Below, piece after piece: positions 1-14,349 of a DNA stretch of 64,000 nucleotides. Origin of the DNA: Turneriella sp. Lineage in GTDB: Bacteria > Spirochaetota > Leptospiria > Turneriellales > Turneriellaceae. The stretch covers positions 160,001 through 224,000 of the forward strand of contig CBDIID010000003.1 of the NCBI GenBank assembly GCA_965279515.1, read 5' to 3'. Made by a program: the position numbers and the translations under genes. A model generated the notes under the pieces. The model worked only from the letters and a program-made list of their open reading frames with translations. It searched no databases and was not told where the DNA came from. How positions within the stretch are numbered: position 1 is the first letter of the stretch; every line of letters starts with the position of its first letter.

Positions 1-39
1 TCCAAGTATCTGTATTAGATGCGCGAACGGTTTGCTCAT
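1..39 (-). CDS. 5' end of a cassette ORF (MSKPFAHLIQILG...), truncated by the window edge
   Basis: ATG at 39-37 just after core site GTTGTGT (56-50); frame open to the window edge. Confidence 0.5.
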   Translation of the reverse strand, partial: MSKPFAHLIQILG

Positions 40-49
40 GGCTAATTTC

Positions 50-265
50 ACACAACGTGGAATTTACCTGACGTTTGGTGACACTTGTGTCATTAATTCA
101 ACCAGAAAAGCCGCCTTGTGTCACCAAATGTGCCCGGAGCGCCTCGCGGCAAAGCACAAAACAAGCGTCCCGCTTGTGCTTTGTCCGCGATCTTCTGGCG
201 CGTAGGGCCGAGCACCCGAGGAGCCACGGCACCGCAGGGAGCGCAGCAGGTAAATTTTGTTGGGC
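50..265 (-). repeat. attC-like repeat R1 (type A)
   Basis: acacaac...aatttacctg...caggtaaatt...gttgggc; 216 bp with internal stems. Confidence 0.9.
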
Positions 266-269
266 GAAG

Positions 270-1745
270 TCATTCTGCTAACGTTCGAGCTTGGTTCTTA
301 AGGTAAAGAAAAAGGCTGAATATCGCCGACCTTGCTATTCGCGTTAAGGAATCTAGGTCTTTCAAAAGTTGCTCTCTTGATACCTTTTTTATTGGGCCAC
401 TTGCCGTTTCAAAGATTGAACTCTTGGTCAATATCAGGGTGGAATGCTCAAGGATGTTACGGTATTCCTTAAAGAAGCGAAGTTCGCCAGTCTTCGATTG
501 AAGGTCCGTGGCAATGCTGTATAAGGCTATGAGATTGAAATTTCCCTCGCTGAACACGGCGTTCTTAATTGTGGGGTAATTTCGCCAGAAAGATTCGAAG
601 AGAACTGATTCGGCAGCGTGGAATTTGATATTATGGCAAAGCATCAGGCCAACTGCAATTTTGTCGAAAACACCATAAATGTAGCGGAACCCGGAAATCA
701 AGCTTAAGTCTGGCGTAAGGGTGGGAAAAAATTCCAAATTTGAAGTCGTGGCTTGATACAGGAGAGAACGACCAATATGAAAATCTACGATAATGCGATC
801 AAATATATGCTTAATGTTGACCGCCGATCGAAGCGAGCGGTTCTTAATGATCTTTAATGTCTCACTTTTGTCAGCAAGAATGTCGTTTCGACCTGCGGAA
901 CAGGAACAATAGTTACTATGTTGTGAAAGGAAAAGACCTCTCTTCAAGCAAAATGATGCCAAATCACCGTAGGAAGTATCATCCAAAACATACTCGAATC
1001 GGTGGCGCCGATCATCCTGTGTGAATTTGAAGCCCATACGCTTCAAGATTTCCCGGATGTATTTTAATTTGGTCCTTAGAAAATCTTTGCTGCCATATGG
1101 CGTAGCAAGGCGAATGGCTTTTCGGAGATGGTGAGACATAGAGAAAAGCATCTGGGGAGTGAACCGGTCCGAAAGATCATTTAACAGCTCCAAAGCCGTT
1201 ACCTTGCTAGCATGTGCTTCAAATCGATCTGGATTTATACTAAGGGCCTGTGAGTAGAAAAATAATGCTTCCGTTACTCGACCGGTGCAATTCAAGGCAT
1301 TTGCGATATTTACGAGAAGCTGGTCCTTCATGTCCTCATCATGGTCAGATAATTGTTTTAGACTGCGCCAATAATGATTTTTAGCTTCTATGACGGTTTG
1401 TAGGTTTTCAGCTGAATAATCGTTGTTTGAATGTCGCCTATGGTCAAATATCGCCTTTTTAGCATTTCCGAGATTGTACTGGAATGAAGACTTTGAATAA
1501 TATTTCTCATATCGCTGCACTTGAATGATCGCTAAACCTTTTTCAATGATATCAAGCCGCATTTGGTACGCGCCAATGTCAGTTAGAAGACAACCAGCTT
1601 TGTAATGAGAATTAATCTTGAAAATCGAGTCTTCGAGTCTTGGAAAAATATTCTCCAAGAAATTCAGAACCAAAGCCATTGCTTCGGCACTATTACCTTC
1701 ATCTACTAAGCGGTCTGCTGTTTCTAGATCAGAATGTATCGTCAT
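270..1745 (-). CDS. TPR + HEPN protein (LA2681-like), cassette C1
   Basis: TPR-like helices (YNLGNA, ANALNCTGRVTEALFFYSQAL) and C-terminal RxxxxH motif (YRNILEH). Start set at MTIHSD because the ORF-track TTG lies in the core site. Confidence 0.75.
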   Translation of the reverse strand: MTIHSDLETADRLVDEGNSAEAMALVLNFLENIFPRLEDSIFKINSHYKAGCLLTDIGAYQMRLDIIEKGLAIIQVQRYEKYYSKSSFQYNLGNAKKAIFDHRRHSNNDYSAENLQTVIEAKNHYWRSLKQLSDHDEDMKDQLLVNIANALNCTGRVTEALFFYSQALSINPDRFEAHASKVTALELLNDLSDRFTPQMLFSMSHHLRKAIRLATPYGSKDFLRTKLKYIREILKRMGFKFTQDDRRHRFEYVLDDTSYGDLASFCLKRGLFLSQHSNYCSCSAGRNDILADKSETLKIIKNRSLRSAVNIKHIFDRIIVDFHIGRSLLYQATTSNLEFFPTLTPDLSLISGFRYIYGVFDKIAVGLMLCHNIKFHAAESVLFESFWRNYPTIKNAVFSEGNFNLIALYSIATDLQSKTGELRFFKEYRNILEHSTLILTKSSIFETASGPIKKVSREQLLKDLDSLTRIARSAIFSLFLYLKNQARTLAE

Positions 1746-1772
1746 GCGGTCTTGTCTTGGCAGAATGATTTC

Positions 1773-1988
1773 GCCCAACGCGGAATTTACCTGACGTTTG
1801 GTGACACCTGTGTCATTAATTCAATCAGGAAAGCCGGTTTGTGTCACCAAATGTGCCCGAAGCGCCTCGCGGCAAAGCACAAAACAAGCGTCCCGCTTGT
1901 GCTTTGTCCGCGATCTTCTGGCGCGTAGGGCCGAGCACGCGAGGAGCTACGGCACCGCAGCGAGCGCAGCAGGTAAATTTTGTTGTGC
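1773..1988 (-). repeat. attC-like repeat R2 (type A)
   Basis: gcccaac...gttgtgc, 216 bp, near-identical to R1 and R3. Confidence 0.9.
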
Positions 1989-1994
1989 GATGAT

Positions 1995-2684
1995 TCAGCG
2001 GGCTTTGGGTGTCAGCGCCTTGGGGAAAATGGCAAAAAAAGCCCCTTGCAACTGACACATCATAACTAAATTTAAGCCATTAGCCCTGATGAAAACTTTA
2101 CCCTTATTAAAGTACGTCAATGATTTGCCTGAAAATTTGGCCATGCTTCTGTGTTGCTTTGCGGCCTTAATGAAATCGAAAGCCGCGTTTTTGGGCAAGT
2201 CCCTATCTGCAACCTGACTACTGAGCAGAGCATCCAATGAAACTTGCTCGTCAGATTTATGGGCTATAACAGGAAAATTCTTTGCCAATTTTACGCCGTA
2301 TTCTTCGGTTAGACTCAAAGTTTCATATCCTGAATTTCCAAGGGTATTCGCTTGGTCAATTTCCCAATATTTGCCAATCAGAAAATCTTGGGCTTTTACA
2401 GTGGAAAACTGAAAGGCGGTGCCATTTAAGAACTGTTGGATGGTATCACACATTTCAGGAATCTCTGGTTTCGAAGCACAATTCAGAGCAGTAGCATATC
2501 TGGCTATTTCTGTATCTGTGACGTCTGTCTTAACTTCAGCTTGGTCATAAGGAACTCCGCCCCTGTTATAAAGGTCTTCCATGCCAAATTCGCGCAATGC
2601 CATTTCTCGCCTGCTATGCCGACATGAGTATAAAACTAGCGCGGAAGAAAAGAGTATGGTCAGAGTTCTTAAGTCTTTGTTCAT
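1995..2684 (-). CDS. Putative lipoprotein, cassette C2
   Basis: MNKDLRTLTILFSSALVLYSC signal peptide with lipobox-like Cys. Confidence 0.65.
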   Translation of the reverse strand: MNKDLRTLTILFSSALVLYSCRHSRREMALREFGMEDLYNRGGVPYDQAEVKTDVTDTEIARYATALNCASKPEIPEMCDTIQQFLNGTAFQFSTVKAQDFLIGKYWEIDQANTLGNSGYETLSLTEEYGVKLAKNFPVIAHKSDEQVSLDALLSSQVADRDLPKNAAFDFIKAAKQHRSMAKFSGKSLTYFNKGKVFIRANGLNLVMMCQLQGAFFAIFPKALTPKAR

Positions 2685-2723
2685 TTTAGATCCCAATAAT
2701 CATATCTGGCCCGCTGAATTTTC

Positions 2724-2939
2724 GCACAACGCGGAATTTACCTGACGTTTGGTGACACTTGTGTCATTAATTCAATCAGGAAAGCCGCCTTGTGTCACCA
2801 AATGTGCCCGAAGCGCCTCGCGGCCAAGCACAAAACAAGCGTCCCGCTTGTGCTTGGTCCGCGATCTTCTGGCGCGTAGGGCCGAGCACGCGAGGAGCTA
2901 CGGCACCGCAGCGAGCGCAGCAGGTAAATTTTGTTGGGC
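2724..2939 (-). repeat. attC-like repeat R3 (type A)
   Basis: gcacaac...gttgggc, 216 bp. Confidence 0.9.
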
Positions 2940-2955
2940 GAAGTGCATTTTCGGA

Positions 2956-3966
2956 TTATGGTTTGCTAAGAATTTTCGTCTTTATTCGATCAAACAGATT
3001 CTGTTTCTTTTCTGGATTTGATCGATCGAAGACTCCATAATGGGCGCGGGCGATTACTAGATGGGGGAATTTGCGCTCAACCACCTCTGCAATATGGTTG
3101 TATAGCTCAATAAGGCTTTTCATCGCGCGCAGGCATTCATCGCGATCAAGTGGGACAATACCCTCGTGAATCAGCCGGTTTCGTAAGTCATATAAGTCAT
3201 TCTTCCAACGGATTACAAACTCGTTTTTTGTGTAGGACAAGTCGGCATCTACGTTTTTCCCAATATGGCGTTCCAGTTTCGGCTTAAGCGTATTTTCTTC
3301 AATGATCTCATCAATCTCTGCATCATTTCGCTGCTGGATTTTGAGGATATTCCGTAATAATTTGTTTACATATATTTCAAATGAGGTTTGGAGATCAATA
3401 ATGCCCATTTTGTACTGGGAGTTCGCCAGCTTTTGCTTCCCTAAGAAGAAATGCTCGTTGACCCTACTTAGGTCAAGTTTATCGTTCCAACGCCTGAGTA
3501 TTTCAATACTATTTGTAAAGTTTTCCTCTGTAAAAGATTCGAAATTGTGATCGTGTAATTTTCCCGGATCAGTAACATACATCGTAATCTGACCCCCAAT
3601 CTCAACAGGAATCAACATTGGAAGATCTGTTATCCCAATCGGAACCAGGTGCATAATTTCCTTTTCCGCAACCAATGCGGCCAAAATGGAATTTATCTCA
3701 TAAATACCTAAGTGCACGAACCTCTGTATCTGCGCTTCAGAAAAATCAGACATCTTTTTATTCTCGAATGCAGGAAATTCTACTTCCACTAGAGTGAAAT
3801 CCAGTTCCGACTCTACGCCAATATTCTCGTAATAGTTTGGAACAGAGCTTCTGCCTCGGCGCTTAGAGAAAGAAATTATTATAATATGATCTCTCGCATA
3901 ACCTATTTCGAGGCTCAATTTTTGAGGAGCGGGAATATTGTATGGCAGGAGGTAGATAATTTTCAT
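2956..3966 (-). CDS. HEPN-domain protein, cassette C3
   Basis: C-terminal LRNRLIH (RxxxxH) preceded by an SFEIYV helix; ATG at 3966 directly after the cassette terminal repeat. Confidence 0.7.
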   Translation of the reverse strand: MKIIYLLPYNIPAPQKLSLEIGYARDHIIIISFSKRRGRSSVPNYYENIGVESELDFTLVEVEFPAFENKKMSDFSEAQIQRFVHLGIYEINSILAALVAEKEIMHLVPIGITDLPMLIPVEIGGQITMYVTDPGKLHDHNFESFTEENFTNSIEILRRWNDKLDLSRVNEHFFLGKQKLANSQYKMGIIDLQTSFEIYVNKLLRNILKIQQRNDAEIDEIIEENTLKPKLERHIGKNVDADLSYTKNEFVIRWKNDLYDLRNRLIHEGIVPLDRDECLRAMKSLIELYNHIAEVVERKFPHLVIARAHYGVFDRSNPEKKQNLFDRIKTKILSKP

Positions 3967-3977
3967 AAATGCATTTC

Positions 3978-4193
3978 GCCCAACGTTGGATTTTACGCTG
4001 ACGTTTTTTGACGCCTGTGTCATTTATTCAATCTGTAAAGCCGAATCGCGTCAAAAAATGTGGTCGTAGCGGCTCGCGGCGACGCGCGAAAACACACCTC
4101 CCGGTGTGCGCGTCGTCCGCGATCTTTGCCGCGAAGACCCGAGCACGCGACCCAACGGAGTGGTCGCGGCGCAGCGCGTAAAATTTGTTCTCT
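3978..4193 (-). repeat. attC-like repeat R4 (type B, variant last arm)
   Basis: gcccaac...ttttacgc...gcgtaaaa...gttctct, 216 bp. Confidence 0.88.
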
Positions 4194-4280
4194 GCCGTAG
4201 CTGCACTTGTGAGCCTAGGCACGGATGCCTAGGCGACTAAGATCGGTAAAGTTACCGCCGGCATTCTACTTATTTCGGAT

Positions 4281-4895
4281 ATGAGCTCTTGCTCAAAAAC
4301 AATGTTTACGGCTTTCGAAGCCATAATTTCTGGTCAGGCTTTTCTTATGAGTCTTAATTCCTTATTTAATTTTCGTATCTCATGTACATGTTTCTTACTA
4401 CTGCTTTTTAGTACTTCCATAAAAGCGGCTGAATTGCCTGGATTTGATGTCGGAGTTTTAGGCAATGTATATGATACCATTAAGAGTGATGGCAGACCTC
4501 TGGCCTGGGGTAGTGGAGCTGGTGCTCTCGTTCACTGGCAATGGTCCGCGGATTGGCGAAGCGGAATGCAGATTGGATGCATAAGCGTCTGTGCTGGTAA
4601 TCTTGAAATCGGTTATCGAGCACAAACAATCTCTTATTCTCGGTTTCGGTATCCAGAACGACTGATTTATTATATCATCGGTTTGGGTATTCATGAAGTT
4701 TGGTTGCGTTTTGTCACGGGGATCAATTCAGTTAAGAACTATGATTCGCAACTTGGACTCGGTGTTGGATTCAGTGTGCACGCGTTTAAAATAGGCGATT
4801 TCTTCTTATCCTACGGAATAAATTTCTACATCATTAATGAATATATGGCATTTGGCTTAGGTCAAGCTTTTGCAGCTCTAGCGTTTCGGCTCTGA
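4281..4895 (+). CDS. Hypothetical exported/outer-membrane protein, inverted cassette C4 (start may be 4347)
   Basis: Only long ORF in the cassette; signal-like segment and alternating beta-strand pattern. Confidence 0.5.
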   Translation: MSSCSKTMFTAFEAIISGQAFLMSLNSLFNFRISCTCFLLLLFSTSIKAAELPGFDVGVLGNVYDTIKSDGRPLAWGSGAGALVHWQWSADWRSGMQIGCISVCAGNLEIGYRAQTISYSRFRYPERLIYYIIGLGIHEVWLRFVTGINSVKNYDSQLGLGVGFSVHAFKIGDFFLSYGINFYIINEYMAFGLGQAFAALAFRL

Positions 4896-4965
4896 GGAGA
4901 GATAATACATAACTGCGACGCGGCACCGCCACGGAGGGCGGTGAAAGAAAAAGTGCAGCTATGGC

Positions 4966-5179
4966 AGAGAACGTGGAATTTACCTGACGATTGGTGACAC
5001 TAGTGTCATTAATTTAATCAGGAAAGCCGAATTGTGTCACCAATTGTGCCCGGAGCGCCTCGCGGCAAAGCACAAAACAAGCGTCCCGCTTGTGCTTTGT
5101 CCGCGATCTTCGGCGCGTAGGGCCGAGCACGCGAGGAGCTACGGCACCGCAGCGGCGCAGCAGGTAAATTTTGTTGGGC
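4966..5179 (-). repeat. attC-like repeat R5 (type A)
   Basis: agagaac...gttgggc, 214 bp. Confidence 0.9.
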
Positions 5180-5222
5180 GAAGTGCACTTCAGTCGGCGA
5201 AAGCATGTTTTAGCAAAGACTA

Positions 5223-5723
5223 TTAGTCTTTTAAACTAGATTTAATAATTTTTATAAGGCTTACAAGATAAATGACCAGAACGCCTGCGATTGACCAAAC
5301 CTCAGGCGATTTGACCCAATCCATAAGAACGAACGGTGCAAAGAACATTGCCCAAAAACTGGGATTCCGAATTTCTTCTCTTCTTGCTAGGGATGTTATG
5401 AGATTTTCAGCAGGCTTGAAATTAGCATAGTAAATGGCTAAGAAAAACAGAAATATCGAAAACAGGGTAAAAACTATGAAATATAGAGCAAAAATCTTAG
5501 AGAATCGATCTTGAATTCCTAATTTGTAGGCACAAACCAGTACCGATATCGAATAAACAAGAATGTAATAATTGAACCAACCGTAAAAACTGCTAGGAGA
5601 ATTATCCGTGAAAGGATTGAAAATTAGATAAAGCAAGATCAAAGCTGATGCTATCAAAAATGCAGCAAAACATGCAATTGCTCTAGATTGACCTGACTTT
5701 TCATAAGTAATAGAGTTTCTCAT
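5223..5723 (-). CDS. Membrane protein (~4 TM), cassette C5
   Basis: 166 aa with several hydrophobic helices. Confidence 0.65.
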   Translation of the reverse strand: MRNSITYEKSGQSRAIACFAAFLIASALILLYLIFNPFTDNSPSSFYGWFNYYILVYSISVLVCAYKLGIQDRFSKIFALYFIVFTLFSIFLFFLAIYYANFKPAENLITSLARREEIRNPSFWAMFFAPFVLMDWVKSPEVWSIAGVLVIYLVSLIKIIKSSLKD

Positions 5724-5793
5724 CAGGTATAAAGGACTAAGTTAGAATAAAATGTATTTGTCTATAGCAATGAATTATTACTCTGTGCATTTC

Positions 5794-6010
5794 GCCCAAC
5801 GTGGATTTTACGCTGACGTTTTTTGACGCTTGTGTCATTTATTCATTTTGGAAAGCCGAATCGCGTCAAAAAATGTGGTCGTAGCGGCTCGCGGCGACGC
5901 GCAAAAACACACCTCCCGGTGTGCGCGTCGTCCGCGATCTTTGCCGCGGAGACCCGAGCACGCGAGGAGCTACTGCACCGCAGCGGCGCAGCGCGTAAAA
6001 TTTGTTGGGC
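5794..6010 (-). repeat. attC-like repeat R6 (type B)
   Basis: gcccaac...gttgggc, 217 bp. Confidence 0.9.
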
Positions 6011-6027
6011 GCAGTAAACCTTCGGTT

Positions 6028-7038
6028 TCATAAGGATCGCATGCTGAGGGATAGATTCAGAGACATTTCCAGTGTCGTATCTTTGAGTATCAGTTCTATG
6101 GCTAGCTGTAACGATTCCAGAGCTTCCAGCATGTCAATATTCCTTCGATTCAAACTATGGGCCACGTCATTTCTCAATTGTCTAAGTTTATCAATTCTTT
6201 TCAATACGCTGATATCGATAACTTCTGCGATTTCTAAAATATTGCTCATAACGCCCGCTGTAAAATCTCGACCCTCAAGAAACTTGCGTCTGTCTGCATT
6301 TATTCGCGAACTAGAGTCACGTAGATTAGTCAAGTACGTAGAATATGTATCTTTAAGTATTGCTTCAACAATGAACCAGGAAAGCACAATTGTCAGTCTG
6401 TAATTAGTCTTCTTGAACTCACTTATGGCTTTGCTCAGCGAATATATGGATTCTGAAAGGCTGGGCGAAGCACAGACAGCAATAAATAGTTCAAACGTGG
6501 ATTGGAGAATCGTCAAGGGCAAAGGCCAGCGAGAAGTTAATCCGAAGCTAGCTCTTAAGGGAAGACCTGGTCGATGTGTACTCCTGAATCGCTGCATGAA
6601 GTAATGGCCAACAACCGAGTTTGGTGGTATACCGGCACTGGTTTGGTTATTTTCCTCGTATGTGGTGCGCTGAGCGTCAGTTGAGGTTATTTCTCGAAAC
6701 TCAAACTGGGCAGATTTTTTTTCTCTAACTGTTACGCCATCGAGAATTAGAGTGTAGATGTTGCATAACTTAAGATACTCATTCCAAAGTTTTGCTCCAT
6801 GTTCAAAATCAGCGGGCTCGTTCTCACCCTTAACTTGCCCTTCTAATTTTTCATGACTAATCTCAACCATGCCATCACGTGCAACTCGAACAATTATGCC
6901 GTCTTTAGAATGACTTGAAACGATTTCAGAAAAATATTCTTCAAAATCCGGTCTGAGTTCTAATTCAGCCCAATTCGGCTCCTCGCCTGCCCAGAACGGG
7001 GGATTAGTGTAAAAATAAGTAAAATTTGCTTTGCTCAT
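6028..7038 (-). CDS. HEPN-domain protein, cassette C6
   Basis: C-terminal LRQLRNDVAH (RxxxxH) and upstream SWFIVE helix. Confidence 0.72.
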   Translation of the reverse strand: MSKANFTYFYTNPPFWAGEEPNWAELELRPDFEEYFSEIVSSHSKDGIIVRVARDGMVEISHEKLEGQVKGENEPADFEHGAKLWNEYLKLCNIYTLILDGVTVREKKSAQFEFREITSTDAQRTTYEENNQTSAGIPPNSVVGHYFMQRFRSTHRPGLPLRASFGLTSRWPLPLTILQSTFELFIAVCASPSLSESIYSLSKAISEFKKTNYRLTIVLSWFIVEAILKDTYSTYLTNLRDSSSRINADRRKFLEGRDFTAGVMSNILEIAEVIDISVLKRIDKLRQLRNDVAHSLNRRNIDMLEALESLQLAIELILKDTTLEMSLNLSLSMRSL

Positions 7039-7064
7039 TCGGTCTTATGCACTAGGTTTATTGC

Positions 7065-7280
7065 GCCCAACGTGGAATTTACCTGAGGTTGAGTGACGCT
7101 TCGTTCAACTTTGTGTTCTGTAAAGCCATATTGCGTCACTCAATCTGCCCGAAGCGCCTCGCGGCAAAGCACAAAACAAGCGTCCCGCTTGTGCTTTGTC
7201 CGCGATCTTTTGGCGCGTAGGGCCGAGCACGCGAGGAGCCACTGCACCGCAGCGAGCGCAGCAGGTAAATTTTGTTGTCT
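7065..7280 (-). repeat. attC-like repeat R7 (type A')
   Basis: gcccaac...gttgagtgacgc/gcgtcactcaat...gttgtct, 216 bp. Confidence 0.9.
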
Positions 7281-7294
7281 GCAGTTCTGGGCCA

Positions 7295-7960
7295 TTAGTG
7301 GATATCTATCGTCACTGCACCAAATAAGCCAGTGGCGTACTCAACATGGGCTTTTTCTCCTTGTCTTGTCCTTAAATAGACTGCTTTGCTCACACTTAAG
7401 TACAGGTTTTCAGAACCATTGCCATGCGTCAGCACCAGGTGATTACGCGGTCCCTTGCCATTTGTTTCGTATCTTTGAACTACATTCATTTTCTCAATTC
7501 TGCGTTCCTTAATGCTCACCATATTAAGCAACGCGATGAAGAAAATAGTCGGCAGAGAGAAAAGGGCTGCGTAGTAAGCAATGCGCGGTATCCTGAATTC
7601 ATACTGGTAGCCGCGGAAAGTAAGAGCCCCGTAAAAAATCAGCATGAATGCAGCTAAGAATAATAGCCCAAAAAAAAGGATTGGGAGGAAATTGAGCCAA
7701 TTAGCGGACGAGACCACAATACCGAAAAGAAAATTTGATACGATTATCCCTACTATCGGGGCCCGCAATGGCAAAGGCTCAAAGTAGAGCGGTCTTCGAG
7801 TAAAACCCACGGAAATAATAATGATTACTAGGTTTAGGCCAGAAGCAAGTAGAATTCGAAAATTGTTCTGTGGATCCGTGAAAATTAGAATCAAAATGAA
7901 AATCAAGTAAGAGTATTCTCGAACTTTACTGGACTCAAAGTATTTATAAAGTAGTTGCAT
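7295..7960 (-). CDS. Membrane protein, cassette C7
   Basis: ~5 TM segments plus a small soluble C-terminal domain. Confidence 0.65.
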   Translation of the reverse strand: MQLLYKYFESSKVREYSYLIFILILIFTDPQNNFRILLASGLNLVIIIISVGFTRRPLYFEPLPLRAPIVGIIVSNFLFGIVVSSANWLNFLPILFFGLLFLAAFMLIFYGALTFRGYQYEFRIPRIAYYAALFSLPTIFFIALLNMVSIKERRIEKMNVVQRYETNGKGPRNHLVLTHGNGSENLYLSVSKAVYLRTRQGEKAHVEYATGLFGAVTIDIH

Positions 7961-7979
7961 ATGCTTGGCCCAGAATTGC

Positions 7980-8195
7980 AGACAACGTGGAATTTACCTG
8001 AGGTTGAGTGACGCTTCGTTCAACTTTGTATTCTGTAAAGCCATTTTGCGTCACTCAATCTGCCCGGAGCGCCTCGCGGCAAAGCACAAAAACAAGCGTC
8101 CCGCTTGTGCTTTGTCCGCGATCTTCTGGCGCGTAGGGCCGAGCACGCGAGGAGCTACGGCACCGCAGCGGCGCAGCAGGTAAATTTTGTTGTCT
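7980..8195 (-). repeat. attC-like repeat R8 (type A')
   Basis: agacaac...gttgtct, 216 bp. Confidence 0.9.
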
Positions 8196-8224
8196 GCAGT
8201 TCGCCTTTAAAAAAATCATTGGGG

Positions 8225-8842
8225 TTATTCTGATTGTATGTAGGTGAATTCTAGTATGGGCTTTCGGGCCTGTTCACGCTGGATAAGACTTCTTAGCTGT
8301 TTTAGTTCGGTCTTGACTTTTTCTAGTTCATGCTCTTGCTTGAGTTTTTCCAGAGCGTTCGTTTCTTTCCTGATCATAGTGATTAATCGCTTCTCTGAAT
8401 TCTCAAATAAGGTGACCGAGGAAGGGGCATAATCAGGTTCTTCCTGACTTTCCTCGTAATGGCTGCGGCTATTTGAATAAGATTCAACTTTGAACTTGTA
8501 CTGGGAGTATAAAGCGTCAAGAATGGAAATCAACCTTTCCTGAGGACATTCGAACCCTGCTGCGCCACCAGTAAGATGATTCATGTGCAGCTCCTTGCCG
8601 AATTTCTCTTTCAGATAATTGATAACCTTGAAAACATCCGTAGGCCCGCTGATTGCTACGCGTAATGTTGGAATTAATTGATAACTAGGTTGCATCGCAA
8701 CTGAGCTAAAAATGGGCCTAAACGCCTCATAAGTCATAGGTCGATCTTGGGCTATTGTTTGCCGGCCAGTACAATAGGCGCTAAGCAGCACCGAAAGCAG
8801 GAAAACTGTATTCTTTTTTCGGTTCCAAATTCTTAGTTTCAA
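8225..8842 (-). CDS. Putative lipoprotein with coiled coil (possibly DUF4349-like), cassette C8
   Basis: CAGGAG RBS before a TTG start; LLSAYC lipobox-like; C-terminal coiled coil. Confidence 0.6.
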   Translation of the reverse strand: MKLRIWNRKKNTVFLLSVLLSAYCTGRQTIAQDRPMTYEAFRPIFSSVAMQPSYQLIPTLRVAISGPTDVFKVINYLKEKFGKELHMNHLTGGAAGFECPQERLISILDALYSQYKFKVESYSNSRSHYEESQEEPDYAPSSVTLFENSEKRLITMIRKETNALEKLKQEHELEKVKTELKQLRSLIQREQARKPILEFTYIQSE

Positions 8843-8865
8843 AAAAATCTCCTGTGGCGAATTGC

Positions 8866-9081
8866 AGACAACGTGGATTTTACGCTGACGTTTTTTGACG
8901 CTTGTGTCATTTATTCAATCTGTAAAGCCGATTTGCGTCAAAAAATGTGGTCGAAGCGGCTCGCGGCGACGCGCAAAAGCAAGCGTCCCGCTTGCGCGTC
9001 GTCCGCGATCTTTGCCGCCGAGACCCGAGCACGCGAGGAGCTACGGCACCGCAGCGGCGCAGCGCGTAAAATTTGTTGGCT
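8866..9081 (-). repeat. attC-like repeat R9 (type B with A-type tip)
   Basis: agacaac...gttggct, 216 bp. Confidence 0.9.
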
Positions 9082-9113
9082 GAAGTGATGCGTTGGGAGA
9101 TTACGCTTTGCCG

Positions 9114-9674
9114 CTATTTTAGAACCTTCGATTTTCGTTTATCAACGTCACTTAAGTAAAGAAACCCGGGAACGGTACCGCTATTTGTACCCCCCTTAAA
9201 AGGAACTGTAGCTCTGAATTTGAGGGGAAACATCTGTTTTGCATTCTTTTTGAGGGCCTTGTAATTTTCTTTCAATTCTGCCGCCTCGGGTTTTATTATT
9301 CCGTTCCAGAACGCAATTTGTTTAGTCCTGGCAATAATTATCGGGTGAACATAACCCAAATCTACCGTATCACTTGGTGTAATGTAACCAATAAAGGCTG
9401 TTCCATCGGCGCTGATAAATTCGGCCCGGACAACAAGTTGACCGGTAAATTCAGTAATTTCCTTGAGATCTGGGCGAGGGCGGACGGTAGCTTCATCTTG
9501 ACCTTCAATACCTTCTTCGTCCAAGGCAAATTCCCATACCGGACATTGCTCGATATCTGAGATTTTCAAATCGTATACTTGTTTTCGGATTCGCATCTGT
9601 GCCGCCAAATTCGTGACCAATAGTATCAATGTAATAAGTGGGGGAAGAGCTCGTCTGGTCAGAGAAATTATCAT
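9114..9674 (-). CDS. Hypothetical exported protein, cassette C9
   Basis: 186 aa ORF with a signal-peptide-like N-terminus; fills the cassette. Confidence 0.65.
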   Translation of the reverse strand: MIISLTRRALPPLITLILLVTNLAAQMRIRKQVYDLKISDIEQCPVWEFALDEEGIEGQDEATVRPRPDLKEITEFTGQLVVRAEFISADGTAFIGYITPSDTVDLGYVHPIIIARTKQIAFWNGIIKPEAAELKENYKALKKNAKQMFPLKFRATVPFKGGTNSGTVPGFLYLSDVDKRKSKVLK

Positions 9675-9702
9675 GTAAACATCTTAGTCATCGCATCATT
9701 TC

Positions 9703-9920
9703 AGCCAACGTGGATTTTACGCTGACGTTTTTTGACGCGTGTGTCATTTATTCAAACTGTAAAGCCGATTTGCGTCAAAAAATGTGGTCGTAGCGGCTCG
9801 CGGCGACGCGCGAAAACACACCTCCCGGTGTGCGCGTCGTCCGCGATCTCTGGCCGCGGAGACCCGAGCACGCGAGGAGCTACGGCACCGCAGCGGCGCA
9901 GCGCGTAAAATTTGTTGTCT
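9703..9920 (-). repeat. attC-like repeat R10 (type B)
   Basis: agccaac...gttgtct, 218 bp. Confidence 0.9.
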
Positions 9921-9994
9921 GAAGTAATTGCGCCTGCAAGCCTGGCCAAGGAGGGCCAGGCGGCTAATTAAGATAAAATTTTAGGCTCATAAAT

Positions 9995-10510
9995 TCAGAT
10001 AAATGACGGTACAAGTATATCTATTCCTTTGAGATTTATTCGCGATAGGATTTCCTTTCCGCGGGGAGAAATAAATAGCCTAGGCTTATTTATTTCATAA
10101 TAAACCAGCTCGTCTTTCAGTACATTATCTTTGAACACCGGTTCATCAATAACCAAAATGTTTCCGGAAGAGCCATAGGTGATCTGGGAACTCCCTTGAT
10201 CCAAGCAGCTTCTATGATTTTTGCATGCGAATAGGAATATCTCGGTATCATCGCACATTAATCTGTGAAATGTACCGTCATTGCTTAACGCGGAAAATAG
10301 CTCAGGAATTTTCTTGCCAATTACAGTTAGCCCGACACTTGTATCAATATCTGGCATGGGTCGTGTTTTTGCATAAGCCCATGAGACCTTAGTGTTTTTG
10401 AGGACGTTTGGGCTGAATCGCCCAAAACGCAGTGCGTCATCGATTTCGTTTTGATTTGAGAACAAGAGTTGCTGATATCTGTTCTTAGGCGAAAGTATGT
10501 ATGGCTTCAT
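9995..10510 (-). CDS. Imm11/DUF1629-like immunity protein, cassette C10 (first in the array)
   Basis: CLDxxxS...I...PVF...LFIS...LKG pattern typical of the Imm11 family (recognised by eye). Confidence 0.55.
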   Translation of the reverse strand: MKPYILSPKNRYQQLLFSNQNEIDDALRFGRFSPNVLKNTKVSWAYAKTRPMPDIDTSVGLTVIGKKIPELFSALSNDGTFHRLMCDDTEIFLFACKNHRSCLDQGSSQITYGSSGNILVIDEPVFKDNVLKDELVYYEINKPRLFISPRGKEILSRINLKGIDILVPSFI

Positions 10511-10668
10511 TAGACGCCCCTGGCAAATAAATCAATATTCTCGAGATTGATTTTATATGGCAAATCATGTTGTCACTCAAAAGGAATTTCATATAAGAAA
10601 ATGCCCTCCCTTGCCTTGCGCGCAGCGTCGCCAAGGATGGCGACGAAGTATATAGGCGCAATTATTTC

Positions 10669-10688
10669 AGACAACGTCTATTAGCTGA
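10669..10688 (-). other. attI-like site (array start)
   Basis: Minus strand TCAGCTAA-TAGAC-GTTGTCT: a core site with no attC body behind it; CAGCTAA resembles the CAGGTAA inner box of the repeats. Confidence 0.6.
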
Positions 10689-10811
10689 ATTGCGTATAAT
10701 TGCCAAAATGTCAATAATCTGGCGAAAAGCGAGGGGGATTTGGTGTTTTCGCGCATTGCGTAAAAGATCCATGTTCTTCCCAGGCGGGGGGCGCCTTTTG
10801 CGATGAGAGAG

Positions 10812-11750
10812 CTAGCGCTCTTTACACGATTCTTTGTAAATAATCACCCACGGTCGCTCCTGGATGCATTTGATGAACGAGCGGCTGTATTCGATGGTGA
10901 GGCGAATGTTGTCGCGTAGTTGTTTGCTCTCTTTATTGAATTTGCCGAGTGTGCCGCGGTTTGTGCTGAGGGCTTTTTCCAGGTATTCGAGGTTGCGGGC
11001 CATGGCGGCGGTGTTTGAGACGAGTTCGGCGAGGCTTTGCTGTTGGGCGGTGAGAATTTCTTCGCTATTGCGGGCGATGAGAGAGATGTTGGTTTTGAGG
11101 CCTTCGAACTGTTCTGAGATCGTGGAAAAGTAACTTTTTGCACCGGAGAGGGTGACGTTGAGGTCATCGCGGTTTTCGGCGACGACGGCGTCGATGTTGG
11201 CGCGCAGGATGCTGGCTTTGGCAAAAATCTGTTCGGCGACTTCGCCGGCGCTCTTGCCTTCAAACCAGCTGGAGAAGGACAGCATCATCTGTTCGAAGGA
11301 GGGCGGCGAGATGCCACGCACGATTTGGCCGGGCTGGATGGTTTTATCACCTGCCATCATTTCCTTGAACTGGACGTTGATGTATTTCTGGCCCATGAGG
11401 TTATTGCTGAAGATCGCGATCTGCGTTTCTTTCGTGTCGGGCATCACATTCTTGAGACTGTTTTCAAGATAGACGCGGACATAGGTCTGCTGGTCTTTCT
11501 GGAAGATATCCTGCACATAACCGACCTGGCGGCCGCCGGCGAGCAGGACGCGGGCATTTTTGGTGAGATTACTGAGGAAAGAAAACGCGACGTCGATGGT
11601 GAAACCCGAGCGGGCAGTGTGGATACGCGCGCCGACGATGGCGCCGATGACGAGGACAAGAAAGCTGAGCAGTACATAGGAACCGACGCGGATCGAGCGG
11701 CGGCGGGCGGCTTCGACGGGGCTCAGGGCAGGCTTGGCGGCCGCAGACAT
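10812..11750 (-). CDS. mlaD: MCE/MlaD family protein
   Basis: N-terminal TM, MCE motif (V..AGGRQVGYV, LMGQKYIN), helical C-terminus. Confidence 0.85.
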   Translation of the reverse strand: MSAAAKPALSPVEAARRRSIRVGSYVLLSFLVLVIGAIVGARIHTARSGFTIDVAFSFLSNLTKNARVLLAGGRQVGYVQDIFQKDQQTYVRVYLENSLKNVMPDTKETQIAIFSNNLMGQKYINVQFKEMMAGDKTIQPGQIVRGISPPSFEQMMLSFSSWFEGKSAGEVAEQIFAKASILRANIDAVVAENRDDLNVTLSGAKSYFSTISEQFEGLKTNISLIARNSEEILTAQQQSLAELVSNTAAMARNLEYLEKALSTNRGTLGKFNKESKQLRDNIRLTIEYSRSFIKCIQERPWVIIYKESCKER

Positions 11751-12640
11751 TAATTGCCTTTGTTGAGAAAGAGAGAGGGATTTTCTTCGAGCTTACGGAA
11801 CAGCTCGCGCGCGTGGTAGGCGGCTTCGTTGGCGTTCTTGTAGAGTTCTTCGTCCTGGATAAGTTTACCGACCGAGCCGCGGCCTGAGTTGACGCGCTGT
11901 GTGATGAGGTTGAGGTCGCGCGAAATTTTCGACATGTTCTCGAGCATGATCTGTATGTCTTGTTTGTTCTGGTTCGAGATGTCGGTAAAGTTTTTCGAGA
12001 GGATGTTGAGTTTTTGCATGAGAGTATCAAGCTGGGCGGAGAGTGAGGTGAACGATTCGCGCGCCTGTTTGATGGTCTGGCGGATATCCCCCCGGTTTTC
12101 ATTCACGATGCCGTTGAGATTGGAGAGGAATGTCTCGGTTTCTTTCATGATCTCGGCCAGAACCTGGCCGCCGTTTTTACCGTCGAACCAGCTGGAGAAC
12201 GCCATCATCATCTGGTCGATGGAGGGCGGGTCGATGCCGACCCATTCATCGCCGTTCTGGAAGAAGACTTCGTTGGGTTTGGCTTCGGGGATGGTGATGT
12301 TGATATACTTTTGGCCCATGAGGCCGGTGGTATAGATGGCGAAGACGGTTTCGACGCGCTTGGGAATTTTGCCGAGCAGGTCTTTTTTTAGGGAGATTTG
12401 TACGTAGGTTTTGAGGTCTTTCTGGTAGATGTTTTCGACATAACCGACGGGCAGGCCGCCTGAGATACGCACGGGGGCACCGTTCGAGAGGTTGTTGAGG
12501 AACCGGAAGCGCAGGTTGAGGCGCAGCCCGTCACCGGAGACTTGCCAGCGGCCGAGAATGGCCAGCAGGCTGACGAATGTCGCCACGGAGATAAGGGTCA
12601 TGACGCCGACGGCGACCTTGGTTTTTCTGTCTTTATCCAT
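11750..12640 (-). CDS. mlaD: MCE/MlaD family protein
   Basis: GAPVRISGGLPVGYV and TTGLMGQKYI motifs. Confidence 0.88.
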   Translation of the reverse strand: MDKDRKTKVAVGVMTLISVATFVSLLAILGRWQVSGDGLRLNLRFRFLNNLSNGAPVRISGGLPVGYVENIYQKDLKTYVQISLKKDLLGKIPKRVETVFAIYTTGLMGQKYINITIPEAKPNEVFFQNGDEWVGIDPPSIDQMMMAFSSWFDGKNGGQVLAEIMKETETFLSNLNGIVNENRGDIRQTIKQARESFTSLSAQLDTLMQKLNILSKNFTDISNQNKQDIQIMLENMSKISRDLNLITQRVNSGRGSVGKLIQDEELYKNANEAAYHARELFRKLEENPSLFLNKGN

Positions 12641-13398
12641 TATAAAATCGGTATCGGGCCTTCGGCTGAACCTTCTACAAATTGGCGTATCACAGGGTCA
12701 TCCGATTTTCTAAAATCATCGGGGGTGCCGATGAGGCGGAATACCCCGTCATAGAGCATGGCGACGCGGTCGGCGGTACGGAACACCGATTGCATATCGT
12801 GAGAAATGACGATCGAGGTGACGCCGGTTTTCGTGTTGAGGCTGCGGATGAGGTCGTCGACGGCGGCGCCGAGAATGGGGTCAACGCCGGTCGTGGGTTC
12901 GTCGTAGAGCACGATTTCGGGATTGAGGGCAATGGCGCGGGCGAGGCCGACGCGTTTTTGCATGCCTCCTGATAAGGCGGATGGATTGATGTGTTCGACG
13001 TCTTTGAGGCCGACGAGGCCCAGTTTCTCCCGAACGAGTGCGGCGATTTCGGCTTCTTTCATACGCGTAAAACGGCGCGGAGCGAAGGCGACATTTTCAT
13101 AGACCGACATCGAGTCGAAGAGGGCGGCCATCTGGAAGAGGACGCCCATTTTTTTACGCAGGATATTGAGGTCGTCGTCACCGAGGCTATGGACATCGGC
13201 ACCGTCGATGAGCACGCGGCCTGAGTCGGGGCGCAGGAGGCCGGTGATATTTTTGAGCGTGACGGATTTGCCCGATCCGCTTTTGCCGATGATGTAGATA
13301 ATTTCGCCGCGCATGATGTCGAGGTCGACGCCGCGCAGAACGTGTTTGTCGCCGAAACTTTTGACGAGGTTTTCGAGGCGGACGTGGACGTCAGGCAT
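12640..13398 (-). CDS. mlaF: ABC transporter ATPase MlaF
   Basis: GKSGSGKS, LSGGMQKRVGLARA, LYDEPTTG. Confidence 0.93.
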   Translation of the reverse strand: MPDVHVRLENLVKSFGDKHVLRGVDLDIMRGEIIYIIGKSGSGKSVTLKNITGLLRPDSGRVLIDGADVHSLGDDDLNILRKKMGVLFQMAALFDSMSVYENVAFAPRRFTRMKEAEIAALVREKLGLVGLKDVEHINPSALSGGMQKRVGLARAIALNPEIVLYDEPTTGVDPILGAAVDDLIRSLNTKTGVTSIVISHDMQSVFRTADRVAMLYDGVFRLIGTPDDFRKSDDPVIRQFVEGSAEGPIPIL

Positions 13399-13416
13399 TT
13401 GGGACGCCCCATTTTT

Positions 13417-13518
13417 TTGAAAAGCCGCTCAAAAATACCGGGCCTCGCAACTTGCCGCGCAAGTTGCTGCTAAAGCGCTTCGCTGCCCGGTACTTTTGGA
13501 AGCCGCGCGGCTTTTCAA
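13417..13518. repeat. Nested palindromic (REP/MITE-like) element between mlaE and mlaF
   Basis: ttgaaaagccgc/gcggcttttcaa; taccgggc/gcccggta; gcaacttgc/gcaagttgc. Confidence 0.65.
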
Positions 13519-13539
13519 GCAAGTTGCAATCCGCATAAG

Positions 13540-14349
13540 TCATAATCCAAATAACTGAAAAATATACGTAATGAAATAGTCCGACACGATGATCATCATA
13601 AAGGAGAACACGACAGCCTGGATCGTCGCCTGGCCGACACCTTCGGCGCCGCCGCGCGCGCGAAAGCCCGAGAAGCACGAGATGAGCGCGATCTCGGCAC
13701 CGAAGAAAAAGGTTTTGCCGACACCCGAGACAAGGTCTTTGCTGTGTACGAGCGTGCGCGCCGAATCGAAGTAGAGATTGTAGGGTATGTCGAGGCTGAT
13801 ATTCGAAATGAGCGCGCCGCCGAAAACGCCGACAACGATGGCCATGACGGTAATCATGGGAATGCAGATGAGCGCAGCGAGAAAGCGCGGTACCGAGAGG
13901 TAGTGCACGGGGTTTGTGGCGAGCGTTGCGAGGGCGTCGATCTGTTCGGTGACCTTCATGGTACCGACTTCGGCGGCGATCGATGAGCCGACGCGGCCGG
14001 CAAGCAGGACGGCGGTGAGTACGGGGGCAAGTTCGCGCACCATGGCGAGGGAAATACCACCGCCCATGAAGGTTGAAATACCCTGGATCTGTTGCTCCAT
14101 GGGGCCGCCGAGCTGCAGCGCCATGACCATGCCGACGAAGAAGGAGCTGACGACGCCGACGGGAATCGATTTTACACCGATCTCGCCCATCTGGTAGAGC
14201 AGGTTACGGAAGTCAAAGGGGCGGGCGAAGACGAAACGAAAGGTTTGGCCAGCGAAAATCGCAAAGCCGCCGAGGGCTTCGAGAAGTCCTAAAACGCCGC
14301 CGCCGATTCTTTCAGCGAGGGGGATTACTTTGCGCGGCAGTCTCTTCAT
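13540..14349 (-). CDS. mlaE: ABC permease MlaE
   Basis: RELAPVLTAVLLAGRVGSSIAAEVGTMKVTEQIDAL. Confidence 0.95.
   Translation of the reverse strand: MKRLPRKVIPLAERIGGGVLGLLEALGGFAIFAGQTFRFVFARPFDFRNLLYQMGEIGVKSIPVGVVSSFFVGMVMALQLGGPMEQQIQGISTFMGGGISLAMVRELAPVLTAVLLAGRVGSSIAAEVGTMKVTEQIDALATLATNPVHYLSVPRFLAALICIPMITVMAIVVGVFGGALISNISLDIPYNLYFDSARTLVHSKDLVSGVGKTFFFGAEIALISCFSGFRARGGAEGVGQATIQAVVFSFMMIIVSDYFITYIFQLFGL

Follow-up and report, generated by a model that had tools for sequence, protein, structure and literature searches.

Sedentary chromosomal integrons, such as the Vibrio cholerae superintegron with its VCR (V. cholerae repeat) sites and its integrase VchIntIA (PDB 2a3v) or the integrons of Treponema, combine a divergently transcribed integrase gene, an attI site and a long AT-rich array of gene cassettes, toxin-antitoxin and gene-less cassettes among them. 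Their attC sites cross over at GTT/AAC, with a conserved G after AAC, on a folded bottom strand whose central spacer is asymmetric. Here we describe a system that shares these traits, together with a probable SOS control, in Turneriella sp. (assembly GCA_965279515.1, three contigs, 99.99% complete, labelled G000); one end of it lies in the 64,000-nt stretch that we analysed (the window, C3:160001-224000 on the third contig). The system resembles a sedentary chromosomal integron but lacks two defining features, the I2 insertion of the integrase and the canonical extrahelical bases of the attC sites. The candidate integrase has no I2 insertion of about 40 residues and bears an extra N-terminal three-helix domain; the sites display a conserved four-way junction in place of a free terminal structure, a spacer with an asymmetry of 2 nt and no canonical extrahelical G in the L box; and the G000 integrase gene is unlinked to the two arrays, each of which keeps an attI-like site.

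Two other known groups come close. As in clusters of attC sites lacking an integrase (CALIN), neither G000 array has an adjoining integrase gene; unlike CALIN, each array has an attI-like site, an intact candidate recombinase is encoded elsewhere and lies beside the array in relatives, and the arrays are far above the mean of 5–6 sites given in the available part of an integron survey (PMC4889954). XerA, XerC, XerD and other I2-less tyrosine recombinases share the insertion-free catalytic domain, while the candidate integrase differs from them by its IntI-like SPL end, its grouping with IntI in a tree and its structure-defined partner sites, in a genome that has its own XerC and XerD. In an excerpt of previous work, I2 is treated as necessary for integron function (PMC7790495), and I2-less recombinases near attC sites were dismissed in the survey, whose table lists its one Turneriella genome without a CALIN, In0 or integron entry (PMC4889954, in part). 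In the open-access literature searched, subscription journals not being covered, we found no description of an I2-less integron or of integrons in this genus.

Two chromosomal arrays of long attC-like sites bear the signature of cassette insertion

The window opens with ten direct repeats of 206–210 nt from AAC to GTT, or 214–218 nt when the four variable core bases on each side are included, in agreement with an earlier, sequence-only reading. This reading had also taken the repeats for a cassette array. The array is real but larger, 80 kb long with 75 sites (array 1, C3:90771-170687), and only its final 10.7 kb, at the leader end, fall within the window. A second array of 52 sites lies at C3:3734379-3805413 (array 2). 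A site-end profile scanned over the chromosome gave 139 matches, 127 of which are inside the two arrays and on one strand per array, and none on the two small contigs. Arrays of 218 and 49 sites were found in the congeners G007 and G016, respectively. Among 439 paired sites the length is mostly 185–218 nt, with a median of 208 nt, and 311 exceed 200 nt; such arrays are likely to be missed by standard integron detection, IntegronFinder having a default maximum attC length of 200 bp. Contigs of two public runs, which may be the source sample, agree letter for letter with the leader end and seven of the listed cassette bodies, and the array is thus not an assembly artefact.

The cassettes of the window are AT-rich, as had been noted (bodies with 35–44% GC, versus 53% for the chromosome), and the leaders of the co-oriented open reading frames (ORFs) are short, about 16–75 nt in eight cassettes and 163 nt in the leader-proximal one. 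One co-oriented ORF per gap is what the window displays, with nine of ten on the minus strand and one exception on the plus strand (4281–4895); over the whole G000 arrays the rule is weaker, since 64 ORFs are co-oriented and 24 opposite, while 36 cassettes have no ORF over half of the body (n = 124).

All ten window cassettes carry inverted copies of the same 7–9 bases at both ends, the previously listed cores included, and the bases outside the core vary among cassettes (25 different 4-mers). We fetched 434 cassette bodies and excluded those longer than 2.6 kb or without a paired left end. In 383 of the remaining 406, the four variable bases after GTT equal the far end of the same cassette, when compared to 57 of 406 that equal the partner within the same site. 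For the two G000 arrays, the own-end match was observed in 63 of 70 and 47 of 48 cases, as against shuffled means of 8.3 and 8.9 (about one in seven). Each array site therefore combines the ends of two cassettes, with the joint inside AAC/GTT, which is the trace expected of inserting circles.

The 434 bodies represent 311 families. In every one of the 24 families with two to four copies, the copies have different neighbours and end at GTT/AAC; 12 of these families span genomes with 72–99% identity, and several within-genome duplicates share 100% identity, which implies recent activity. Judged by these comparisons, cassette order is not fixed and movement appears recent, and the array system is real, large and active-looking. 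Fixed gene order among relatives, or repeats dispersed singly over the genome, had been named beforehand as signs against an integron. We found instead that common cassettes have differing neighbours across arrays and genomes, and that the site ends cluster in the two arrays with one site per cassette. That the repeats are REP- or MITE-like elements (repetitive extragenic palindromes or miniature inverted-repeat transposable elements) inserted between island genes is scarcely credible: the 12 of 139 site ends that lie outside the arrays, mostly decayed, would suit this idea, which is contradicted by the single orientation per array, the one site per cassette, the complementarity of own ends, the dedicated leader site and the reshuffled order.

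Small clusters of decayed or lengthened sites are found outside the arrays (C3:1909097, 2805273-2807818, 3059312, 4811501-4812539 and others) and are possibly secondary-site insertions. No site of this type was present in the viral contigs searched, and Rfam gave no match at E ≤ 1 in the first 11 kb of the window.

The candidate integrase is an I2-less relative of IntI

G000 encodes four tyrosine recombinases, including separate XerC and XerD, none of which is above the integron-integrase cut-off. The candidate integrase is an intact 366-aa protein encoded outside the window (C3:2926093-2927193, minus strand), 0.9 and 2.8 Mb from the two arrays. It is over the cut-off for PF00589, scores 161 bits against TIGR02249 (cut-off 265), and has XerA as its best NCBIfam match, with 196 bits under a cut-off of 220. 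The catalytic residues R225, H316, R319, H342 and Y351 are invariant in 12 of 12 orthologs, the closest of which is that of G009 (63%). The C-terminal SPL motif of IntI is kept, and the top Foldseek match of the integrase model is 2a3v. Alignment to VchIntIA falls into two pieces, and the gap between them is 41 residues shorter in the 366-aa protein; the distance from the catalytic Arg to the His is 93 residues, versus 133 in 28 of 30 canonical spirochaete IntI, with two not measurable. According to this alignment, the missing segment is the I2-bearing insertion. Pattern-derived Arg-His values for G007 and G016 (43) and for a 311-aa recombinase (77) were discarded as mis-measured, the alignment showing no insertion in G007 and G016.

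In a quick tree of 80 rows, which sampled every second IntI (from spirochaetes only), one in four representatives and one in five of the related loci, IntI groups with the I2-less proteins apart from XerC/D with a support of 99, and the tree does not resolve where IntI branches within this group. A related-locus search with the integrase returned one ortholog, otherwise distant I2-less recombinases, and no IntI; on plasmids there was no close integrase, the best reaching about 35–39%. The extra N-terminal domain spans about 60 residues and has no match in the Atlas, while the fold search placed several integrase N-domains near the top with a best Z of 5.4, which is not significant.

Another recombinase might act on the sites, either the 311-aa tyrosine recombinase encoded at C3:2781270, XerC/D or a transposase, but we hold this to be very improbable. 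The 311-aa protein likewise matches TIGR02249 weakly, its gene is 24 kb away from a small cluster of decayed sites, and an IS481-type insertion sequence (IS) is confined to the arrays. On the other hand, in the closed genomes of the congeners G007 and G016 the recombinases of similar length are encoded at a distance from the arrays, the 311-aa gene has no LexA-type motif, and the IS is absent from most cassettes.

A leader site, predicted to act as attI, adjoins the integrase gene in relatives

Both G000 arrays end at the same sequence (window 10673–10687 and C3:3805399), and its exact 15-mer pattern has just two occurrences in the genome, one per array head. A profile that included both of these sites scores 32 and 30 at the two array heads and at most 21 elsewhere. 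The left flank of this site equals the far end of the first cassette in six of six arrays, and the site does not fold like the repeats. The leader sequence is the equivalent of attI, with a function that is predicted.

The exact 15-mer was found in none of 19 relatives, whose sites were detected only by profile. A clear match lies within 1.4 kb upstream of the integrase gene in 9 of 11 assessable relatives; it is weak in one and missing in one (G009), while the contigs of G017 and G018 stop short of the region and no match was obtained for G012. The integrase ortholog stands directly beyond the attI-like site and points away from the array, and in seven relatives attC-like sites follow further upstream on the same contig, with the integrase adjacent and divergent to the array, as is not the case in G000 or G009.

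This linkage bears on the idea that the arrays are CALIN built by a canonical IntI, since lost or visiting on mobile DNA, with the I2-less recombinase as a bystander. The absence of an adjoining integrase in G000 would agree with it, as would the occurrence of canonical IntI among other spirochaetes, where 36 of 301 genomes have a match over cut-off. It is nevertheless decidedly unlikely, as none of 20 family genomes has a TIGR02249 match over cut-off and canonical IntI is found in 0 of 61 genomes of family f3, the place of intI is taken by the I2-less gene in 9 of 11 relatives, with several chromosomal locations represented, the identical duplicates speak for recent activity, and the sites have no canonical L-box extrahelical base.

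The term sedentary, used in the sequence-only reading, fits the arrays in that they are chromosomal and fits less well otherwise: the genes downstream of the integrase in the relatives G007–G019 map to at least seven different G000 loci among 12 congeners, which indicates repeated moves of the integrase-attI platform. The G016 array and array 2 match at their tails. On contig C1 of G011 there is a second attI-like site with sites upstream and, as in G000, no adjoining integrase, and in G013 a MazEF-like pair, as read from its sequence, lies between the leader site and the integrase. With regard to a Pc promoter, no sigma-70 match was found upstream of attI, and two weak matches lie within the first cassette, versus 1.0 expected.

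The AAC-bearing strand folds into a conserved four-way junction

The AAC-bearing strand of the repeats folds as a basal stem with three arms (z = -7.9 for site 3, plus strand). Across 29 diverse sites, compensatory changes support 35 of 55 pairs and 93% of cells pair, a count that relatedness inflates and that includes one pair added by us; none of 500 shuffles was as high, and slid controls were also far below. Base pairing, rather than sequence, is conserved through the basal stem and the arms. The basal stem is formed in 77 of 80 sampled sites, the AAC strand being the more stable one in 71 of 80, and the stem triplet is paired in 351 of 355 sites, which cover seven common types. Four helices meet without an unpaired base at a near-invariant junction sequence, past which arm 3 holds an invariant bulged A. 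The central spacer has four bases versus two and is closed by G.T pairs, which would become A.C mismatches on the opposite strand. Canonical extrahelical bases (R''-L'' arm of the L stem) are absent, the L stem being fully paired in the commonest types, and about a third of the sites have an optional bulged base on the other arm. The cores are often not GTTRRRY (GTCT, CTCT and GCCC are common) and pairing runs past the 7-mer core. VCR sites devoid of extrahelical bases still recombine, with reduced strand specificity, and the shape of the spacer matters (PMC2727003, in the excerpt available).

The attI-like site and the attC-like sites are common only in the 3-base core, with no spacer homology beyond AAC(G), which favours a single exchange on the folded strand. 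The same enzyme and cassettes might still use classical double-strand recombination with two exchanges, the inverted repeats serving only for accessory binding or transcription. Consistent with this, the enzyme is without the helix said to block the second exchange (PMC7790495, excerpt), and the central region of the attI-like site is, by our reading, 6 nt long and Xer-like. We regard it as unlikely, however: what is conserved in the basal stem and arms is the pairing, cassettes vary in the bases outside the core, and the missing homology between attI and attC spacers does not fit a two-exchange reaction, which, as stated in the same excerpt as above, requires spacer homology (PMC2727003).

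The integrase gene is preceded by a LexA-type motif

The chromosome has four exact copies of a 15-base direct-repeat motif of the GTTC-N7-GTTC type, which stand upstream of lexA, recA, a PA0069-family radical SAM gene and the integrase gene. GTTC-N7-GTTC is a LexA box in Alphaproteobacteria. A motif of this form is also found ahead of 9 of the 13 family orthologs of the integrase, and expression of the integrase is probably under LexA as judged by this common promoter motif. SOS control of canonical integrases has been published (PMC3108266, seen in excerpt).

Distribution in the family and the class

The repeat is present in 12 of 13 congeners and in one of six other family members. The host had previously been described as Leptospiraceae-like; its family is a separate one, within the same class as a large family that we take, from inferred names, to be Leptospiraceae. 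Homologs of the integrase are found in 112 of 151 genomes of the class, and among 20 whose upstream region we followed for 20 kb, or as far as the contig reached, five (G141, G354, G352, G329 and G325) have AAC..GTT repeat sites, two of these genomes with the same arm-3 motif. Single full-length sites in the f3 genomes G342 and G111 point to cassette transfer between families. Most members of the f3 genera g8, g9, g10 and g13 have one I2-less homolog, with a match that starts around profile position 75–97 of 359.

An integron variant probably run in trans by an I2-less integrase

Altogether, we consider it about 80% probable that these arrays belong to an integron variant whose integrase has no I2, is probably under SOS control and acts in trans. 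The sequence-only reading had anticipated the integron architecture, the insertion at GTT and the atypical class, and our results support all three; the system is atypical mainly because its recombinase has no IntI insertion and is encoded far from the arrays in G000. In the mechanism that we propose, cassettes would circulate as circles closed by their own site of about 208 nt, and be inserted at, or excised from, the attI-like site via a crossover inside the common AAC/GTT triplet. The enzyme would be the 366-aa IntI-related recombinase, whose gene is divergent beside the attI-like site in most congeners and may, once detached in G000, serve both arrays in trans, its expression probably being under LexA. 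The folded AAC-bearing strand would most likely be cleaved, a single strand exchange then being resolved by replication, and the choice of strand could come from the G.T-closed asymmetric spacer and the four-way junction beside the L box, in place of the extrahelical bases read by I2.

Several observations weigh against this proposal. The tree is limited, being quick and confined to spirochaete IntI. There is no attI-like site beside the integrase in G000 and G009, and in G014 the integrase is frameshifted beside a site-bearing array. Contig joints at the repeats in the public runs gave no evidence of excision, no excised circle and no recombination. Fifteen of the 20 homologs followed have no array within 20 kb upstream (13 of 13 from four large f3 genera, two of two from f59), and the protein family thus also exists without arrays. 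Finally, the LexA-type motif is absent upstream of the integrase in G011, G004 and G010 (the region is cut in G017), and the LexA1 box of Leptospira, TTTG-N5-CAAA in the part of the study available, is unlike the 15-mer (PMC3789691).

Beyond an integron variant with an I2-less integrase, we tentatively raise the possibility of a second integron class, perhaps in a pre-I2 state, in which folded single strands would be recombined via a built-in four-way junction that resembles a Holliday junction and is perhaps read by the N-terminal domain, under SOS control through a direct-repeat LexA box, with several arrays served from one distant gene. If it were so, such systems would be invisible to searches based on IntI and attC models. 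Integron integrases are defined by I2, to which the capacity for single-strand cassette recombination is attributed; with an I2-less enzyme linked to arrays of as many as 218 sites, this claim becomes directly testable. The I2-less system would provide the natural sister or ancestral form that evolution studies lacked, and the conserved four-armed site a new substrate geometry for tyrosine recombinases. Integron surveys would also undercount large gene-capture systems, which here make up 3% of the chromosome and are full of unknown, toxin-antitoxin and defence-like genes.

Cassette content and neighbouring genes

The features of the window are collected in Table 1. Only one window protein has a solid family match, the TPR and LA2681-like HEPN protein, a plausible anti-phage nuclease without a PADLOC match; PADLOC matched none of ten window proteins and 4 of 24 others. 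Type II toxin-antitoxin modules, most of them in opposite orientation, account for about 19 loci among 150 ORFs taken from array parts beyond the window; other cargo comprises transposases, ankyrin, KAP NTPase and PDC-S39 defence-like genes, many ORFs having no family.

Table 1. Positions of the attC-like sites, cassette bodies and leader site in the window
Feature	Position	Strand	Remarks
attC-like site 1	54..261	+	AAC..GTT; plus = 'bottom' strand with respect to the cassette genes
Cassette body	259..1779	-	TPR + LA2681-like HEPN protein, ORF 270-1778
attC-like site 2	1777..1984	+	
Cassette body	1982..2730	-	ORF 1995-2696, no Pfam/NCBIfam match
attC-like site 3	2728..2935	+	Folded: basal stem + three arms, z -7.9
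Cassette body	2933..3984	-	ORF 2956-3966, no family match
attC-like site 4	3982..4189	+	
Cassette body	4187..4972	+	Sole oppositely oriented ORF, 4281-4895
attC-like site 5	4970..5175	+	
Cassette body	5173..5800	-	Hydrophobic ORF 5223-5723
attC-like site 6	5798..6006	+	
Cassette body	6004..7071	-	ORF 6028-7038
attC-like site 7	7069..7276	+	
Cassette body	7274..7986	-	Hydrophobic ORF 7295-7960
attC-like site 8	7984..8191	+	
Cassette body	8189..8872	-	ORF 8225-8842
attC-like site 9	8870..9077	+	
Cassette body	9075..9709	-	ORF 9114-9674
attC-like site 10	9707..9916	+	
Leader-proximal cassette body	9914..10675	-	Presumably the newest; ORF 9995-10510
attI-like primary site	10673..10696	+	Also heads the second array; upstream of the integrase in relatives

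Gene-less cassettes, known from Vibrio arrays (10.1101/2023.11.21.568050, excerpt), belong to four unrelated sequence types, of 194 nt, of 280 and 375 nt (both in G007) and of about 335 nt (G013). The 194-nt type has 13 copies in G000, all within the arrays (C3:111115 and 12 other places); it has no sigma-70 match, and one copy tested shows no excess RNA folding (z = -0.6). The 280- and 375-nt types account for 82 of 216 bodies in G007 (38% of the array). A regular alternation of gene-less cassettes with genes in G007 was considered and rejected, with 38 adjacent pairs versus 30.7 expected.

The IS481-type element encodes a 401-aa rve transposase and has eight near-full copies, all inside the two arrays (for example 136.7–138.0, 143.1–144.4 and 3740.5–3741.8 kb on C3). 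Six copies end 15–16 nt before the AAC of a site, and the end sequence is also present at both array tails; from these positions the element looks targeted to cassette junctions. In array 2, two long blocks of chromosomal-type genes stand between sites (C3:3785089-3799772; ClpP, DsbD, thioredoxin, an AraC sensor, glutathione peroxidase). On the other side of the leader site of array 1, an operon annotated by eye from its translations (window 10812–14349) resembles mlaE/mlaF with two tandem MlaD-like genes; it is transcribed toward the attI-like site and could read through into the array.

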